A stretch of 64,000 nucleotides of DNA, taken from the NCBI RefSeq assembly GCF_004010195.1, contig NC_057714.1, positions 21,956,044-22,020,043 of the forward strand. Reading direction: 5' to 3'. Position numbers and translations under genes: made by a program. The notes beneath the pieces are model-generated. The model was not told the DNA's origin. It saw only the letters and a list, made by a program, of their open reading frames with translations, and searched no databases. Source of the DNA: Chiloscyllium plagiosum. Taxonomy: Eukaryota. This document shows positions 16,900-55,659 of this stretch, in pieces (the first letter of the stretch is position 1; the number at the start of each line of letters is the position of its first letter).

Positions 16900-17555
16900 G
16901 AGCAAATTCTCTGCTAGTTGGAGTCTTACCTGACGCATAGCAAGATACTTGTGATTGTTGAAAGTCAGTCATCTCAGCTCCAAGACATCTCTGCAGGAGT
17001 TCCTCACCATGGTGTCCTAGGCCCAACCATCTTCAGCTGATTCATTAGTGACCTTCCATCCATCAGAAGGTTGAAAGTGGGAATGCTCACTGATGATTGC
17101 ACAATGTTCAGCATCGTTCACGACACCTCAGATACTGAGACAGTCCATTTTCAAATACAATATCTAGGCTTACGCTGACAAGTGTCCAGTAACATTTGCA
17201 TCACACAAATGTCAGTCAATTTGTATGATTTCTGATGAAGGGCTTATGCCCAAAACATTGATTCTCGTGCTCCTTGGATGTTGCCTGACCTGTTGTGCTT
17301 TTCCAGCAACACACTTTCGACACAAATGTCAAGCAATGACCATCAGATGATCTAATCACAACCCTTGGTGTTCCATGGTGTCACCATTACTGAATCCACT
17401 TCTATCAATATCCTGGGGCTAACCATTGACCAGAAACTCAACTGGACCTACCACATAACCACAGTGGCTACAAGAGCAGGTCAGAGGAATACTCCAGCAA
17501 GTAACTCACCTCCTGACTCCCCAAAGCATGTCAACCATATTCAAGGCACAAGTCA
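16900..17555 (+). mobile_element. CR1/L2-clade LINE RT fragment (second family)
   Basis: Degraded GVP.GVLGPTIFS.FISDLPSIIRRLKVGMLTDDCTMFS...VTFASHKCQAMTI...INILGLTIDQKLNWT. Confidence 0.8.
17215..17319 (+). mobile_element. 105 bp pLTR/hammerhead insertion (family 1) with 12 bp TSD
   Basis: acacaaatgtca at 17203-17214 and 17320-17331. The insert contains CTGATGAagggcttatgcccAAAAC. Confidence 0.85.
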
Positions 17556-25013: not shown

Positions 25014-27062
25014 AGAACAAGGACAAAGAACAATGAAAATTTACAGCCTAGGAACAGGCCCTTTGGCCCTCCAAGCCTGTGCCAATCCAAATCCACTGTC
25101 TAAACCTATTGCCCAATTCCTAAGGATCTGTATCCCACTGCTCTCCCCCTACTCATGCATCTGTCCAGACACACCTTAGAGAATCCATCGTACCTGCCCC
25201 TACTACCTCTGCTGGCAACGTGTTCCAGATACCTACCACCCTCTCTGTAAAGTACATTCCACATGTATCCCCCTTAAACTTTTCTCCTCTCACCTTGAAC
25301 ACGTGACTTCTTGTTATTGAATCACTCACCCTGGGAAAAGCTTATCTCAATCCATCCTGTCTATACCCGTCATGATTTTGTAAACCTCAATCAGGTCCCC
25401 CATCAATCACCTTTTTTCTAATGCAAATAGCCCTAACTTACTCAATCTCTCTTCATAGCTAGCACCTTCCATACCAGGCAACATCCTCATAAACCTTCTC
25501 TGCACCGTGTCCAAAGCATCCATATCCTTTTGGTAATGTGGCGACGAGAACTGTACACAGTATTCCAAATGTGGCCAAACCAAAGACTTGCACAATTTTA
25601 ACATGACCTGCCAACGATTATACTCAATACCCCATCCGATGAAAGCAAGCATACCAAATGCCTTCTTGACCACTCTATCCACCTGGACAGCCATCTTCAG
25701 AGTACAATAGTCCTGAACTCCCAAATCTCTCTGCTCAACAACTTTTCTCAAGGCTCTTCTGTTTACTGTATAATTCGCTCTTGAATTAGACTTCCCAAAA
25801 TGCATCACTTTACATTTGCCTGGATTGAAGTCCATCTGCCACTTCTCTGTCCAACTCTCCAGTCTATCTATATACTCCTGTATTCTTTGACAGTGCCCTA
25901 TGTTTTCTGCTACTCCATCAATCTTTGTGTCATCTGCAAACTTACTAATCAGACCACCAATGCCCTCTTCCAGATCATTTATGTATATTACAAACAACAC
26001 TGACCCCTGTTGAACACCATTGGTCATCTTTCTCCTTTTCAAGAAACTCCCTTCAACTACCACTCTCTGTCTCCTGTTGCTCAACCAGTTCTTTATCCAC
26101 CTAGCTAGCACACCCTGCACACCGTGTGACTTCACTTTCTCCATTAGTTTACCATGGGGAACTTTATCAAACACCTTACTAAAGTCCATGTATATGACAT
26201 CTAAAGCCTTTCCTTCATCTATCAACTTGGTCACTTCCTCAAAGAACGCTATTAAATTGGTAAAGCAACATCTCCCCTGCACAAAACCATGTTGCCTATC
26301 ACTTCCAAATATAGATCCTATCCCTCAGTACCTTCTCCAGCAACCTTCCCACCATTGATGTCAGGCTCACTGGTCTGTAGTTACCTGCAATATCCCTACT
26401 ACTCTTCTTGAACAGGGAGACAACAGTACCAACTGTCCAGTCCTCTGGCACTTCACCTATGTTTAAGGATATTACAAAGATATCTGTCAGGGCCCCAGCT
26501 ATTTCCTCTCTCGCCTCCCTCAGCAACCTGGGATGGATCCCATCCAGTCCTGGAGATTTGTCCACCTTAATATCCTTTAGCTTACCCAACACATCCTCCC
26601 TCCTTATTGTCAGTGTGATCCAGAGTAAACAAACTTCTATCTCTAATCTCAACATTCATCATGTCCCTCTCCTCAGTGAACCCTGATGCAAAGTATTCAT
26701 TGAGAATCTCACCCATTTTTCTCTGGTTCGACATAAACCTTCCTTCCTTATCCTTTAGTGGACCAACCCTATTTCTAGTTACCCTCTTGCTTCCTGTAAA
26801 AGGCCTTCGGATTTTCTGTAACTTTGCTCACTAAAGTCATTTGATGACCCCTTTTAGCCCACTTGATTCCTCATTTAAGATTGGTCCTACTCTCCTGATA
26901 TTCCTCCAAGGCCCATCTGTTCTTAGCCACCTGGACCTTATGTATGCTTCCCTTTTCCTCTTGGCTAGTCGTACAATTTCTCCTGTCATCATGGTTCATG
27001 AATCTTGCCTTTCCTATCCTTTATTTTCAAAGGGACATGCCTATCCTGCACTATCTTTGATC
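25014..27062 (-). mobile_element. Younger CR1 LINE (ORF2 RT) nested in older CR1
   Basis: ORF 25407-26282 has [30 protein letters not shown] 26299-26655 has KSPGLDGIHPRLL...NYRPVSLTS. Tail is the same subfamily as 47905-51466. Confidence 0.93.
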
Positions 27063-31499: not shown

Positions 31500-32670
31500 C
31501 AGGAAAGCGGTGAGTATTTATACTCACCCTTCGAAGCCGTCGGTCATTTCCAGTGCGAGCAGCAGCGAAGGTAAGACCGTTTGGTTTTAAAAGTACTTAC
31601 CGGTAGCGGGCAGCGGTGTTTTTTTTTCTCTTTCACTCTCTCTTCACAGAAAGAGCGGGAGCACCAGGGGGAAGTGACGACGACCAGAGGGGCAGCCGAG
31701 ACCCGGAAGCAGTTAGTGTAAGCTTACCTGGGTAGGTTTTTTCCCCCTTTAAAAGCGCGAAGGAGAGGAACCCGAGGCACTACACGGGTAGTGCCTCCCA
31801 CCCGCCCTCCTCCTCTAACCTAATAATAACATCTGTTGTGGTAAGTAGGTAAGTGCTGAATTTTGCTTGTTGTATTCTTTAGACCCAGTTTTTTTTAAAA
31901 TAAAAGTTAGCTTTAGAGGGATGGCAGTGAAGGCAGTGCAATGTTCCTCCTGCAACATGTATGAGGTGAGGGATGCCATCGACGTCCCTGCCGATTACAC
32001 TTGCAGGAAGTGCACCCATCTCCAGCTCCTCCAAGACCGTGTTAGGGAACTGGAGCTGGAGTTGGATGAACTTCGGATCATTCGGGAGGCAGAGGGGGTC
32101 ATAGATCAGAGTTATAGGGAAGTAGTAACTCCAAAGATGGCAGATAGATGGGTGACAGTGAGGGGGACTGGGAGGAAGCAGCCAGTGCAGGGACCCCCTG
32201 CGGCCGTTCCCCTCAAGAACAAGTATACCGTTTTGGATACTTGTGGGGGGGATAACTTACCAGGGGTAAGTAACGGGGCTCAGGTCTCTGGCACGGAGCC
32301 TGTCCCCGTTACTCAGAAGGGAAGGGTGAAGAAGATCAGAGCAGTAGTAATTGGGGATTCGATAGTTCGGGGCACAGATAGGCGGTTTTGTGGGAACGAG
32401 AGAGACTCACGTTTGGTATGTTGCCTCCCAGGTGCAAGGGTACGTGATGTCTCTGATCGTGTTTTCCGGGTCCTGGAGGGGGAGGGGGAGCAGCCCGAAG
32501 TCGTGGTCCATATTGGCACCAACGACATAGGTAGGAGGAGTGCCGAGGATGTTAGACAGGCTTTCAGGGAGCTAGGTTGGAAGCTCAGAGTTAGAACGAA
32601 CAGAGTTGTTGTCTCTGGTTTGTTACCCGTGCCACGTGATAGAGATTCAAGGAATAGGGAAAGAGAACAG
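31500..32670 (+). mobile_element. Young CR1 5' end only (5' UTR + ORF1), 3'-truncated
   Basis: CpG-rich 5' UTR followed by ORF1. Homology stops at ...NREREQ (32670). Confidence 0.85.
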
Positions 32671-32706
32671 ACTTGGTTATGTAATTCCTGCCTTCATTCC
32701 TGTTAG
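31921..32706 (+). CDS. CR1 ORF1p: zinc finger/leucine zipper + SGNH esterase domain (C-terminally truncated)
   Basis: MAVKAVQCSSCNMY...YTCRKC..LQLLQDRVRELELELDEL; VVIGDSIVRG, CCLPGARV, VVVHIGTNDI are GDSL/SGNH blocks I-III. The last ~11 codons read into flank. Confidence 0.85.
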   Translation: MAVKAVQCSSCNMYEVRDAIDVPADYTCRKCTHLQLLQDRVRELELELDELRIIREAEGVIDQSYREVVTPKMADRWVTVRGTGRKQPVQGPPAAVPLKNKYTVLDTCGGDNLPGVSNGAQVSGTEPVPVTQKGRVKKIRAVVIGDSIVRGTDRRFCGNERDSRLVCCLPGARVRDVSDRVFRVLEGEGEQPEVVVHIGTNDIGRRSAEDVRQAFRELGWKLRVRTNRVVVSGLLPVPRDRDSRNREREQTWLCNSCLHSC

Positions 32707-38855: not shown

Positions 38856-39084
38856 AGTAAAAACTGAAAAGACTGCAGATGCTGTAAATCAGACACAAAA
38901 ATAAAAATTGCTGGAAAAGCTCAGCAGGTCTGGCAGCATCTGTGAGAGAATCAGTGTTAACATTTGGGATTGAGTGACCCTTCCTCAGTTCAGGAAAAGT
39001 CACTCAATGCCAAATGTTAACTCTGCTTCTCTCCACAGATGTTGTCAGACCCGCTGAGCTTTCCCAGCAATTTCCAGTTTTGTC
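38856..39084. mobile_element. Fold-back pLTR element (family 2) with 13 bp TSD
   Basis: taaaatttagcta at 38843-38855 and 39085-39097. Inverted arms meet at gagtgacccttcctcag/ttcaggaaaagtcactc (decayed CUGAGGA hammerhead). Confidence 0.85.
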
Positions 39085-39439
39085 TAAAATTTAGCTATCT
39101 GTCATTTCACTTTGAATCTCTCATTCATACCTCTTGCTGCTTCTGGCTTCAGTAATTTTCGTTTTGCTATTGGAAAAGAAAATTGGATGCTCCATGATGT
39201 TGGTCTTTGGACTAGACTGCTTCTCACGCCTTCAATAGGAGTAATTCTCCACTCTAGGATTGCCTTGAACAAGTCTAGCTGGAATTTCCTAATTTCTTTT
39301 TCTGCAATTCTCTTCGGCAATTGTCACTGTCACTGCAGCCTTCCCATTTAACTGGATAAATTGGAGAGCAGTTACATGGCACTGTATTCTATGACTCTAT
39401 GAGTCGTGACTTGAGGGTGACTATCACTCATCACAATGT

Positions 39440-39642
39440 CTGGACAGTCATAATGACAAAATGCATCTGGTTTATTAATGTCCTATAGAGATGAATATTT
39501 GTCCTTTTTGTACTCTTATGAACATGTGACCTATAATAATGTGGTTGACCCCTATCTGCCCTCTGAAATGGCCTAGCATGTCACTCAGTTCAACAGATGG
39601 CAACCTTGCCAGTGATGCCCACATCCCATGCAAGAATGAAAA
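39440..39642 (+). mobile_element. Partial copy of second SINE family
   Basis: tctggtttattaatgtcctatag...aatgtggttgacc...gccagtgatgcccacatcccatgcaagaat. Confidence 0.6.
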
Positions 39643-39785
39643 GATGTTGTCTTGATGCTTTCATGCATCCTTTCTTTAGTAATACCTGCAGTAATTTTAC
39701 AGTTGCATCTTGCTGCATCATGTTCTTGACGTGAATAAAAATGTTTGTCTTGCAAATTCAATGTTTTGACTTGGTCAATGAGCAC

Positions 39786-41406
39786 AGAGTCGAGAATGTG
39801 GTGCTCAAAAAACACAGCTGGTCAGGCAGCATCCAAGGAGCAGGAGAATCGGCGTTTTGGGCATAAGCCCTTCATCAGGAATGTTTGAAATGAAGAGGTC
39901 AAGGGCAGGTAACAGGCCAGCACGAGGTATCCAGGTGGATGGCGTGTGTTGGAGGCGGGAGAAGGGGTCCTCGGTGGGTGGGCGGGTATCTTGGTTAAAA
40001 AAGTAGGCACGGAGGTGGAGGCAGGGGAAGAAGTTCGCAGTTCAAGTTTAAGTTTGCAGCATCTGTCAAACTCATTAATCTGGGACTGTACAGGGATAAA
40101 GGTGAGGCTTTTACTGAGGACTAAACATTCGTCCTCAGTGAGGGGGAGGTCTGGGGGAATGGTGAAAACATGGCCGGGATGGGAGCTAGGACCTGGGACC
40201 TGGAGTGGGTCTGGAGTTTGAGGTGGGGGCGGAGACAGTTGCTTGAGTGGGCGTGGTTATCAGGGCTGTTGTGACGTCACTGACAGAAGTGACGCTCACA
40301 AAGGGGGAGGAGGTAATGCTTATGGCAGTGTTAACGGAGGTGGAGGTGGCATCACAAGCAGTGAGGACAATGTTACTGTTAGGTACTCGGCTGGTGACAT
40401 CGTGACATCAAAGATAGAGCCTTCCAGCCGGGTGGAGGTGACTGCCATGGTGGCAACTGCGGGGGCGGAAGTGACATGTAAGGTAGGTATCATGTCTGTG
40501 CTGGTGAATCTAGCAGTGCTGGTGTATCCTGCAGTGGTGGTTGTCTCTGCAGTTGCCAAGGTGGTTGGGCGGACGGCAATCATGGAGGTTTTGTGGTCAG
40601 CAGTGGCTGTGAGGCGTGCGGCAGTGTCGGGGGCTGAAGTGGCATCATCAATCGCTCCGGCGGTCATGAAAAGAGCGGCCATGTGGCTAATGGCACCTGG
40701 GCGGTGCCAGAGGGCAGGGGAAGGTTCTAGAAGGTTTGAGGAAACCTGTGTATGGGGGAAGTACATGAAAGTTTATTTAGCTTACATTCTTTTATGCCTG
40801 ATGCAGTAGGGGAATACTGTTTGTTGAGCGCATGTATCCTTCTGAGGATGTAGAAATACAGAGGTCCACTGCAGGTCTGGGAAAGTGTGGCTCTGAGCTG
40901 GGGCAGAGCTGACTGTAGGTAGAGTAGATGGCGGCGCATAGCTGATAGTATTGAGCGGAGGATCCGGAAAGAGAATTGTTGTTGAAGGTTTCTGATTTGT
41001 AGTCGAGACTGGGTATTCTGTTCAGGTCCAAACTGGGTTGGTCCGGAGTCCATGTGGGATCAGATGGTTCCGAAGGCAGGTACTGAGGGAGGAGATGTGG
41101 CTGTGGTAGCGAGTCTGCTTGAGGACGTGACTGAAGAGCTTCAGGGCAGAGGAGAGGACCTGGGGGGAGGATGCAGTGAGGGAGGAACTCACAGAGATTC
41201 TTGTAGAGGGAGGAGGAGAACTTCTTCAAGGTAGGCATCCTTGGAAGAGGCTTCACAGTAGGGTTGAAATCAACTAGGAGAAAGTGAGGACTGCAGATGC
41301 TGGAGACCAGAGTCGAGAATGTGGTGCTGAAAACGCACAGTAGGTCAGGCAACATCCAAGGAGCAGGAAAATCGAGGTTTCAGGCATAAGCCCTTCATCT
41401 GGAATG
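39786..41406 (-). mobile_element. Non-autonomous Penelope-like element: pLTR - N-terminal ORF fragment - pLTR
   Basis: ~100 bp direct repeats at 39786-39883 and 41309-41406. Frameshifted minus ORF includes HISSLSTCLRNHLIPHGLR, ILRSILSAMRRHL and VFTIPPDLPLTEDECLVLSKSLTFIP (PLE LSKGL.F motif). TSD core tgagcacagag. Confidence 0.85.
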
Positions 41407-41429
41407 CTCCGTCCAGTGAGCACAGAGCA

Positions 41430-43500
41430 TATCAAGCTGTCACTTCACAGAGTCCACACTGTCTTTTTTGATAGACAGCCAGTTTTGAAAGCATTCAGAA
41501 ATATACATCTGTTTCCCTTGTTTGTATGTCATATCCAGGTGACATCTCTGCCACAAAGGTATCTCTGCAGATCTTTGAAGCAGATACGTGGAATGATGAA
41601 AACGTTTTGAAGTTACTTATGGTGGAACTCCATTATAGTTTTGAGTTTCCCAAACAGGTATTGATTAAAATGCTCACAAGCAATGACAACAGCCAGGCAT
41701 TGCTTCCCAATCTGAATGCATCATCTTTCGGTTTGTGTTAATGCCCTGGCTGTGATGGAACTGATTAATCCGCGCTGCATTAGGGTTGCACAAAGTCCTG
41801 TCTTACTGGTATCCCATTGCAAAGTGACGTCACCACTGTCATCGCAATCCTCGGCACTGGTGTTGCCATCACTCATTTAATTCTAGTGAAAGGTGCTGCA
41901 CCACCTTAGGAATGAGCATGTGGAAATGTTTGGACTCCACCGAAAAATTAGACATGTACTTTGGTAAATAGTTCACCAATCCAACGAATGACTACACTGC
42001 TTTACATGTGTTGGTTGCTGCATCTGTGCTACACCACTCAACTTGTTTTAATGCAGGCAAAGTTCTTTTGTTATGAGTACATGATCTACATATTTGACCT
42101 CAGAAATTTTCAGTTGGTTTGTTTTGCTTTCTGGTTCATCTGTAGAATTTTCTCAAACAGTCACAATGAATTTTATGTTCCCTTCTGCCAGTGTGTCACC
42201 ACATCCATTATCTAGCAGATTATTCACAATAAAAACTCCACTCCAGGAAGATCATTATTTTGTGCTGCTTGCATTGATACTCTTCTGGGGCTGTAGAAGT
42301 ACTATTGGCATGTGCAACATCTGTATTTCTGAATGCAGAATTTTGTTACAAAGGTACTTCTTTCACTCATCTTCACTTGCCAGTAGGCATTGTATCAAGT
42401 GTGGTGAAGACTTTAACTTTACTACTTGGCAAAATACCTTCAGTGGTTGGCATGGGGCAATGTGAGCTTTCAAAGCTTTATTGAAATATTTTGCATCTAC
42501 ATTTAGTCTCAATTTCCAGACCTTTGTCACTGCTGCTATGCTGTTAATCCAGTCTGTAGGAGTTTTCACTTCATTTACTTTCCAGTTTCTCAATCTTGTC
42601 TTTCGTTCAGGATTGAGGGCAGTTGGTAGTCCCCTCAGCAGATTAAATGTTGGTTCAATACTTGCATTTACCTTAAGCTAACATTCACCTAGAAAACATC
42701 CAAGACCTGCAAAAGTATCTTTGTAATCTTCTAAGTTCTCAGCAGCAGCCAATGGCTTAATAGCCTGGGAAATGCTCATTTGGGGTTACTAGTGCAAGCT
42801 TTGGATTTGCTTTAATTTGGATGAATGGATTTAGCTTAATCCCCACTATCTGGAACTCCATTCTCCACCCTCATTTCGGAAACTCTGAGCACAAAACTTT
42901 TCACTGTGCCTCGGTCCACATGACAATAAATTCAATTCAGTTCAATCCAATTCAGATGTTCTTTCTTTCCATTTCATTGGATTCTCATCTTCTTTTGTCC
43001 TCTTATGCTTGAATATCATTGCATCATACAGCCTCAACATTACCTTTGAGGACTTCATTTTTGGATTGACATCTTGAGTGACTCGAGTGACAAACTCCTG
43101 ATATTACTCAAAGCACTGATGTCTAACTGACATTTCATATTCACTTGACACTCTCCTTCTATAGCTACCATTCTAACAACCACAAACCATTTGTCACCTT
43201 AAGACATGACAACATCAACCTGTTAAAAGATGTCAAGTGATTTGTCAGAATCATCAGTTGACATCTCTGCAGCAGAAACCTTGATAGTCTTGTTTTGCTT
43301 CTTTTGAGTTAAGTAATTGTGTGCCCAGTGATTCAGCTTCCTGCTGTTACAGCACTACTTATCTCATGATGAAAATGTCTGCTTTTTTTTTATGTGCTGT
43401 CCGCTGCAATATTTACACCTGTCCTCTGGTCTCATCATTCTGCTGGTTCTTCTGCAAAGCGTTCTTTCAGTCTGTTGTTCTAATTCAGCCCGAAATATCT
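41430..43500 (-). mobile_element. Degraded Gypsy LTR-retrotransposon pol remnants
   Basis: ORF 42363-42593 TPTDWINSIAAVTK..KLRLNVDAKYFNKALK resembles the Gypsy RT start (PTDW.S..V.V.K..KLR.C.DP..LNKALK). A CQLDIS protease-like motif lies near 43120. Confidence 0.6.
42850..42955 (+). mobile_element. Rex/Babar-like LINE 3' tail
   Basis: aaaacttttcactgtgcctcggtccacatgacaataaa followed by (ttcaa)n. Confidence 0.55.
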
Positions 43501-54975: not shown

Positions 54976-55186
54976 GGAGAAAGTGAGGACTGCAGGTGCT
55001 GGAGATCAGAATCAAAACATGCAGTGCTGGAAAAGCAGAGCAGATCAGGCAGCATCCGAGGAGCAGGAGAGTCGACATTTTGGGCGTTCAGGAATGATGA
55101 AGGGCTTATGCCCGAAACGTTAACTCTCCTGCTCCTTGGATGTTGCCTGACCTGTTGTGTTTTTCTAACCGCCACACTTTTTTGAC
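54976..55186. mobile_element. Head-to-head inverted pLTR pair (family 1)
   Basis: Left arm ggagaaagtgaggactgcag...gagtcgacattttgggc. Right arm tgatgaagggcttatgcccgaaacgttaactctcctgctcc... Confidence 0.85.
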
Positions 55187-55659
55187 ACTATTCCCAAATC
55201 CGGTAGACATTCCACAAGTTGATTTTCTTGAGATCAGCTACCAAACTGATTTTCCCAGTCCACCTGCATTCTATTTTCTGTCCCACATCCTGACTACTCC
55301 TGGGAGAACTTTTTACAATTTCCATCCGTCTTTTTCCCTTTGTAGTTTCTTAACTCTCTCCACACAGATTCCACATCTTCTGACTCCTTATCAGTTTTTG
55401 CTTTAAATTTAATTTCATTTCTTACTAACAAGGCAACCATTCCACCTCTGCCAATTTCCCCGTCCAATCACCACCCAATGAACTTATGGGTGATCTGCCA
55501 TAGCACTGTTTTGTGCTGGGCCCGTGATCCTGGGCTTTAATTTATCTTGTTTAAAAAAAAAACTTCCAAGCTATGAGCCAAATAAAGTTAACAAAATAAA
55601 GCACCTCTTGCCTTCTGCAAAGGAGTCCCACACTAAATCCAAGTTCTCCAAACTATATA

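Follow-up and report, generated by a model that had tools for sequence, protein, structure and literature searches.

Two direct repeats with hammerhead motifs enclose part of a Penelope ORF in the 64,000-nt stretch of Chiloscyllium plagiosum DNA analyzed here (the window). The question this locus raises is whether they mark a retrozyme-like element, the RNA of which circularized, or a copy of a Penelope-like element with endonuclease (EN+ PLE) that lacks its middle, and by what route that middle would have gone missing. By itself the locus is minor, one decayed copy in a very large transposon family; it is useful as a record of PLE mechanism, in which the building of the terminal repeats and the role of the hammerhead are unsettled (PMC11167929, PMC4209133).

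Architecture of the insertion

The sequence-only reading had described two direct repeats of about 100 bp lying 1523 bp apart, each with a mutated hammerhead on the minus strand, around only the N-terminal part of a Penelope ORF that breaks directly into the second repeat, and all of this is borne out (Table 1). Repeats A and B are direct, 99 nt each, 1523 nt apart and 87.9% identical, no RT or GIY-YIG sequence lies between them, and PLE homology stops at 39883/39884. The two ends of the element can be read directly, as can the target-site duplication (TSD) that had been claimed for the unit: its copies match at 13 of 14 positions, although the target and the element overlap by 5 nt (cagag) and not by 4, and 7 extra nt at 41407-41413 had gone unmentioned. 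Those 7 nt have no exact second copy within 39500-41700. At up to one mismatch the TSD 14-mer occurs in these two places only in the 64-kb window, and in a control with a similar search box an equal match turned up in 3 of 5000 random point pairs. Neither repeat contains any of the family's upstream 3' UTR, and the GC content of the unit is 0.53. A separate repeat, with contig depth up to thousands, occupies 39474-39647 in the left flank.

Table 1. Features of the focal insertion, in window coordinates
Feature	Position	Strand	Remark
TSD, 5' side of element	41414-41427	no strand	13/14 identical to 39776-39789
Extra 7 nt between TSD and element head	41407-41413	minus	untemplated or origin not known
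Repeat A (pLTR head)	41308-41406	minus	starts 5 nt before hammerhead C3
Minimal hammerhead A	41369-41405	minus	predicted cut 41374/41373; U4A, C11.1U, G16.2C
Tail, bounded by the two 3' end points of the family	41276-41307	minus	window copies end at either point
PLE ORF, N-terminal part	39884-41238	minus	at least 5 frame switches; ends ~120 aa before RT domain
Internal junction, ORF/repeat B	39883-39884	minus	overlap of 1 nt; coincides with the usual 5' stop of the family
Repeat B	39785-39883	minus	first base 5 nt ahead of C3; stops at the inner 3' end point and lacks the tail
Minimal hammerhead B	39846-39882	minus	predicted cut 39851/39850; G12A, U16.1C
TSD, 3' (priming) side	39776-39789	no strand	39785-39789 common to TSD and element end

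Minimal hammerhead motifs are thought to be active as dimers that swap the strand of the cut site, and U16.1 and U4 are needed for cleavage. Both repeats carry such a motif of type I on the minus strand, with C3 at 41401 in A and at 39878 in B. Across the eight window copies of the repeat the share of paired cells is 96% for stem II and 62.5% for stem I, covariation is not above that of shuffles, and the monomers fold no better than shuffles (z = 0.29 for A and -0.79 for B). An Rfam search up to E = 1 listed no hammerhead; its three hits at E ≤ 1, all below gathering scores, are to microRNA precursors and fall on unrelated hairpins; a fold-back insertion at 38861-39113, belonging to a second, diverged PLE end family, yields spurious matches of this kind. 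The family majority has an extra base after A9, a G10.1-C11.1 pair and a palindromic 15.2-16.2 without loop 3, which fits the minimal PLE hammerhead (PMC4209133), whereas here stem II has 4 bp, stem I is weak and the core is changed in both copies. When the two copies are paired as a dimer, the A core with the B site lacks U16.1 and the B core with the A site lacks G12, the general base of the hammerhead (PMC6155905). Cleavage by either motif today is not expected from these sequences, although a young copy may still have had both cores intact.

The internal junction lies 33 nt upstream of the second predicted cut (39851/39850) and 5 nt before C3, and repeats A and B begin at the identical base, -5 from C3. 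Four further window copies (17228, 34462, 3649 and 55085) have their first base at -2 to -5, so that the usual 5' stop of the family is where all six copies with a free head begin; the remaining two (33633 and 55095) begin at inversion centers. At 54976-55188 and 33612-33757 copies of this repeat family stand as inverted pairs, head to head. The native upstream sequence of the family, taken as the consensus of loose contig ends behind 39883 in three DNA runs, precedes neither A nor B; the loose ends at 39882-39884 include, besides true 5' ends, copies that extend into the native UTR. On the other side the family ends at two points, an inner one used by repeat B, at which it ends, and an outer one at 41276/41277, where contig loose ends pile up in the three runs, and the tail between them measures 32 nt (41307-41276). 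In EN+ PLEs the tail between the two 3' end points is 30-40 bp, and in the anole element PAc it is bounded by two RT start sites (PMC11167929).

A parallel in layout is a solo copy at 17203-17337, with an 18-bp TSD, 7 extra nt on its 5' side, and a head and inner end like those of the focal copy; judged by this layout, the focal insertion is the design of that mini-copy plus 1523 nt. A TSD search at seven other copies gave this one clear case (17203/17320), with weak or no candidates elsewhere. The A-B divergence of 12.2% is the least among the 28 pairs formed by the eight window copies, the others ranging from 15.1 to 28.6%. At 12-190, on the minus strand, an ORF piece equivalent to 41135-41005 is joined to a 31-nt tail piece with ~5 nt of microhomology, a second tail-to-ORF chimera that runs in the same direction as the focal one and has another junction; 3-13 and 189-199 form a weak TSD candidate for it.

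The ORF relic and its source element

Homology to PLE proteins begins at the ATG at 41238, where P0002 (Hemiscyllium ocellatum), P0003 and P0008 start to align, and ends at 39883/39884. P0001, a Chiloscyllium punctatum protein obtained with the reading frame that precedes the junction as query, has an RVT_1 RT domain at aa 285-467; its alignment to the locus reaches aa 165 (= 39883) and goes no further, and its RT region has no match anywhere in the 64-kb window. The relic is colinear with P0001-P0004 and P0008, tiling shows at least five frame switches, and its last 51 aa are 76-80% identical to P0001, P0004 and P0017, the closest named relatives being carpet-shark proteins. The ~635 residues that follow the break in full-length relatives are absent from the focal locus, and Pfam gave nothing credible in the six frames of the unit. 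The junction was also weighed as a product of splicing, a reading rejected because the residue next after the break in the relatives is a Cys, which does not begin with GT. Elsewhere in the window, LINE-type relics at 25410-26324 and 31849-32703 contain an RVT_1 frame and a GDSL-esterase-like frame that fall below the Pfam cut-off.

A GIY-YIG-type pattern is present in 78 of 119 RT relatives and a CX2-5CxxC pattern in 101 of 119, the latter being one that can also match within the endonuclease; in the shark and ray proteins P0018, P0020 and P0053 it forms a separate linker, which is absent from the focal locus. Such a linker between RT and EN is a mark of Neptune and Nematis (PMC8557442), and on this protein evidence the source element is an EN+ PLE, probably of the Neptune/Nematis type, the two clades taken together. 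With the described members of this group, which have pLTRs, a tail and partial tandems (PMC8557442, PMC3846280, PMC11167929), the focal insertion shares direct pLTRs with a minimal hammerhead motif, a tail bounded by two 3' end points and a TSD of variable length, and its relatives have the RT, the CX2-5CxxC linker and the GIY-YIG domain. In contrast, the focal copy has no RT, linker, endonuclease or 3' UTR, and its ORF joins the repeat head directly: in its mode of insertion it resembles any other EN+ PLE, but it is a derivative and not an autonomous EN+ PLE. Internally deleted PLE copies have been described before (PMC8557442, PMC3846280).

None of the 42 proteins that match the last stretch of the ORF continues into the repeat frame, about 13 of them being close enough to speak for this family. 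Hits to P0004 and P0010 appeared to pass the junction; neither enters the repeat frame. Predicted proteins P0007 and P0010 of this PLE family have other internal gaps, and that of P0010 (aa 60-66) begins a few residues from the focal break and lands within the RT domain.

Origin of the internal junction

We consider it probable, at roughly 0.6, that the locus is a dead, internally deleted EN+ PLE copy left by one target-primed insertion with a template jump. The protein of a full-length element would have nicked the target DNA and, by way of the 5-nt match, started synthesis inside the RNA at the inner tail site; the RT would then have copied 99 nt to the usual stop of the family, 5 nt before the hammerhead core and probably the 5' end of the RNA. 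From there it would have jumped to an ORF position 1.5 kb downstream, on this RNA or on a sister molecule, and read up to that stop a second time, the new end then being joined to the target with the 7 extra nt in between. The outcome would be a solo mini-copy with one extra lap, its hammerheads carried along and decayed since. This reading draws on the common start of A and B and of all six free heads, on the solo copy, which has the same build minus the middle, on A and B being the closest pair, on the second chimera with its other junction, and on the contig depth of the interior. In public contigs aligned to 39300-41900 at 80% identity (DNA runs X1, X15 and X17 out of 24 runs listed, species labels A, B and C, X1 possibly being the source sample) the unique flank has a depth of 7-14 in its first bin, the ORF linker at 40344-40430 one of 31-62 and repeat B one of 2.3-6.1 million, about 10^5-fold the flank; depth here is not copy number, some records being filtered and paralogues below 80% identity lying outside the count. 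At position 40341, run X1 has about five paralogous contigs beside the locus at ≥80% identity, among the contigs listed.

Internal starts of a PLE RT at two tail sites have been shown for PAc (PMC11167929), and in vivo template jumps have been reported for R2 (PMC3414825); for Penelope a jump has been proposed (PMC3846280), and in the PLE literature we found that proposal alone and no demonstration for a PLE RT. Against the template jump weigh the priming of PAc without target homology (PMC11167929), where the focal end has 5 nt, and the 1-nt overlap at the junction, which is no positive mark of a jump; moreover, a short form made elsewhere and then copied here would leave the same DNA structure.

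The latter route has a real though minor chance. The locus would then be a retransposed deletion derivative akin to the R2 SIDEs, its junction formed elsewhere by a jump or by a mini-copy within the ORF, a read-through RNA having inserted here in trans, and it would belong to a small non-autonomous family. The TSD enclosing the whole unit and the five or so paralogous contigs with interior sequence, the junctions of which lie mostly outside view, are consistent with this, and the literature records non-autonomous derivatives of PLEs as well as one internally deleted copy that is transcribed (PMC8557442). SIDEs resemble the focal copy in that a ribozyme-bearing head is fused to the priming end with the enzyme domains gone, and a template jump is one proposed origin for them; they are, however, multicopy with active ribozymes (PMC3414825), whereas the focal ribozymes have decayed and the contigs listed give no sign of a family. 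Siblings of a mobilized short form must carry the ORF linker, which makes a large family unlikely: contigs at ≥80% identity set a ceiling of a handful of copies. Two paralogous contigs among those listed stop aligning at 39883, with 12 unaligned letters beyond it in one, which cannot be aligned to the repeat, and 1 in the other, and the zero of 42 proteins running into the repeat frame also weighs against such siblings. The sequence-only reading had suggested that the deleted form may have transposed as such, and had named a mobilized non-autonomous family as what many copies of the junction with distinct TSDs would indicate; the former is upheld, since the whole unit was inserted with its own TSD and without RT or endonuclease, and the latter is not supported, the interior being present in only those five or so contigs at ≥80% identity. 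The case it had set against itself, a one-off template switch, is now the favored reading, while the uniqueness of the junction is bounded and not proven.

Both outer junctions are crossed by public contigs, and none of the 24 contigs listed crosses the internal one (there are 278,319 further). Near-identical pieces cover the left junction in species label C (10 differences in 301), the right junction in label B (7 in 299) and the interior in label B (8 in 267), so that the insertion is common to three species labels about 3% apart, predates their split and is old; if repeats A and B were identical on arrival, we infer that the event would be about four times older than that split. Neither an empty site nor a solo-repeat allele is among the best 15 of 1258 joints. 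The junction pattern had 0 matches in JGI metagenomes and the family motif 0 in viral contigs, and of 105 pattern matches to ORF relatives in metagenomes 0 were confirmed; nothing suggests that these collections contain the organism, so their negative results carry no weight.

That a DNA deletion after insertion took the RT, the endonuclease and the 3' UTR from a full-length copy is improbable. Microhomology-mediated deletions disable many Penelope copies (PMC3846280), and P0007 and P0010 show other internal gaps in the family, but the overlap here is only 1 nt, and the distal break must have hit the 5-nt start zone within the at least 1.9 kb removed, an estimated ~0.3% if breaks are uniform.

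More doubtful still is the retrozyme-type route, in which both hammerheads would have cut, a 1523-nt RNA would have circularized and rolling reverse transcription would have given 1.07 units. The predicted cut sites are indeed 1523 nt apart, a circular template, of the kind proposed for PLEs (PMC4209133), would agree with a copy longer than one unit, and the cores could once have been whole. Yet the route cannot create a junction that lies 33 nt from the cut site and hence needs a precursor locus, paralogues are few, and both dimer pairings lack core bases today. Minimal PLE hammerheads cleave weakly (PMC4209133), hammerhead cleavage is dispensable for PAc insertion in vitro, with no RNA ends at the PAc cut site (PMC11167929), and eight of nine tested retrozyme dimers did not cleave (bioRxiv 10.64898/2026.07.22.740005).

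Comparison with known retrozymes points the same way. Non-LTR retrozymes, like the focal unit, have two direct type-I hammerhead motifs, a PLE origin and TSDs of more than 4 bp (PMC7229834; bioRxiv 10.64898/2026.07.22.740005). They are described as low-GC, noncoding tandem repeats of 150-450 bp with canonical type-I hammerheads (PMC7229834), or with consensus lengths of 51-972 bp and two consecutive complete hammerheads required (bioRxiv 10.64898/2026.07.22.740005), and as expressed in linear and circular monomer RNA. The focal locus, in contrast, is one 1523-nt unit plus 99 nt (1.07 copies) at 53% GC, with an ORF relic and minimal hammerheads that have changes in both cores and no Rfam hit. 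Plant LTR retrozymes share with it two ribozyme-bearing repeats around a spacer, but have ~350-bp LTRs, type-III hammerheads, a 4-bp TSD and a Ty3-gypsy partner (PMC4918200), against 99-bp repeats, a type-I layout, a 14-bp TSD and a PLE partner here. With mutated cores, these published features missing and a junction at the usual 5' stop instead of the cut site, the ~1.5-kb circle that had been envisaged for the unit is not supported, and the retrozyme reading is weak. In RNA run X22, 6% of which was aligned, no read fell anywhere on 39300-41900, a blank that says nothing about expression. As its sequence stands, the copy is long dead and ordinary for its class, and is not expected to be a circular-RNA element today.

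Two separate adjacent insertions, or an assembly join, would suit the local density of the repeat (eight copies in 64 kb) and an internal junction that no listed contig crosses, but a single TSD spans the unit and runs of other species labels contain near-identical pieces that cover each outer junction and the interior, leaving this reading barely credible.

A possible strand transfer and role of the hammerhead

A wider reading, which we put forward tentatively and hold to be rather unlikely, would make the locus the fossil of a mis-aimed strand transfer, following a retrovirus-like strong stop, in the normal PLE cycle. The RNA would start 5 nt before the hammerhead core and end where the hammerhead of the downstream repeat cuts, which would give it a 33-nt terminal redundancy. 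Target-primed reverse transcription would start in the 5' tail and run off after 100-130 nt, and normal transfer to the 3' end through the redundancy would rebuild the pLTR-ORF-pLTR-tail arrangement from a monomer; failed transfers would yield the mass of mini-copies, and mis-transfers the chimeras, both the focal one and that at 12-190. If true, strand transfer would provide a function for the PLE hammerhead and account for the partial tandems. An internal promoter has been described in the pLTR of Drosophila Penelope (PMC2377424), and a literature search by title and abstract opening, with subscription journals covered in small part, returned no strand-transfer proposal for PLEs. The dispensability of hammerhead cleavage for PAc in vitro and the absence of RNA ends at its cut site (PMC11167929) argue against strand transfer. 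Where junctions at the usual 5' stop land in the ORF would separate the template jump from the circle or read-through models.

A lead for strand transfer is an opposite-strand joint, 39850/39882, found in 19 contigs from the three runs and among the best 15 of 1258 joints, since 39850 directly follows the predicted cut; the joint could just as well be due to a short ATTC/GAAT match. Both 39850/39882 and a second joint, 39850/41272, recur in public contigs at this base, and such joints may be traces of RNA templates that had been cut, or of microhomology alone.
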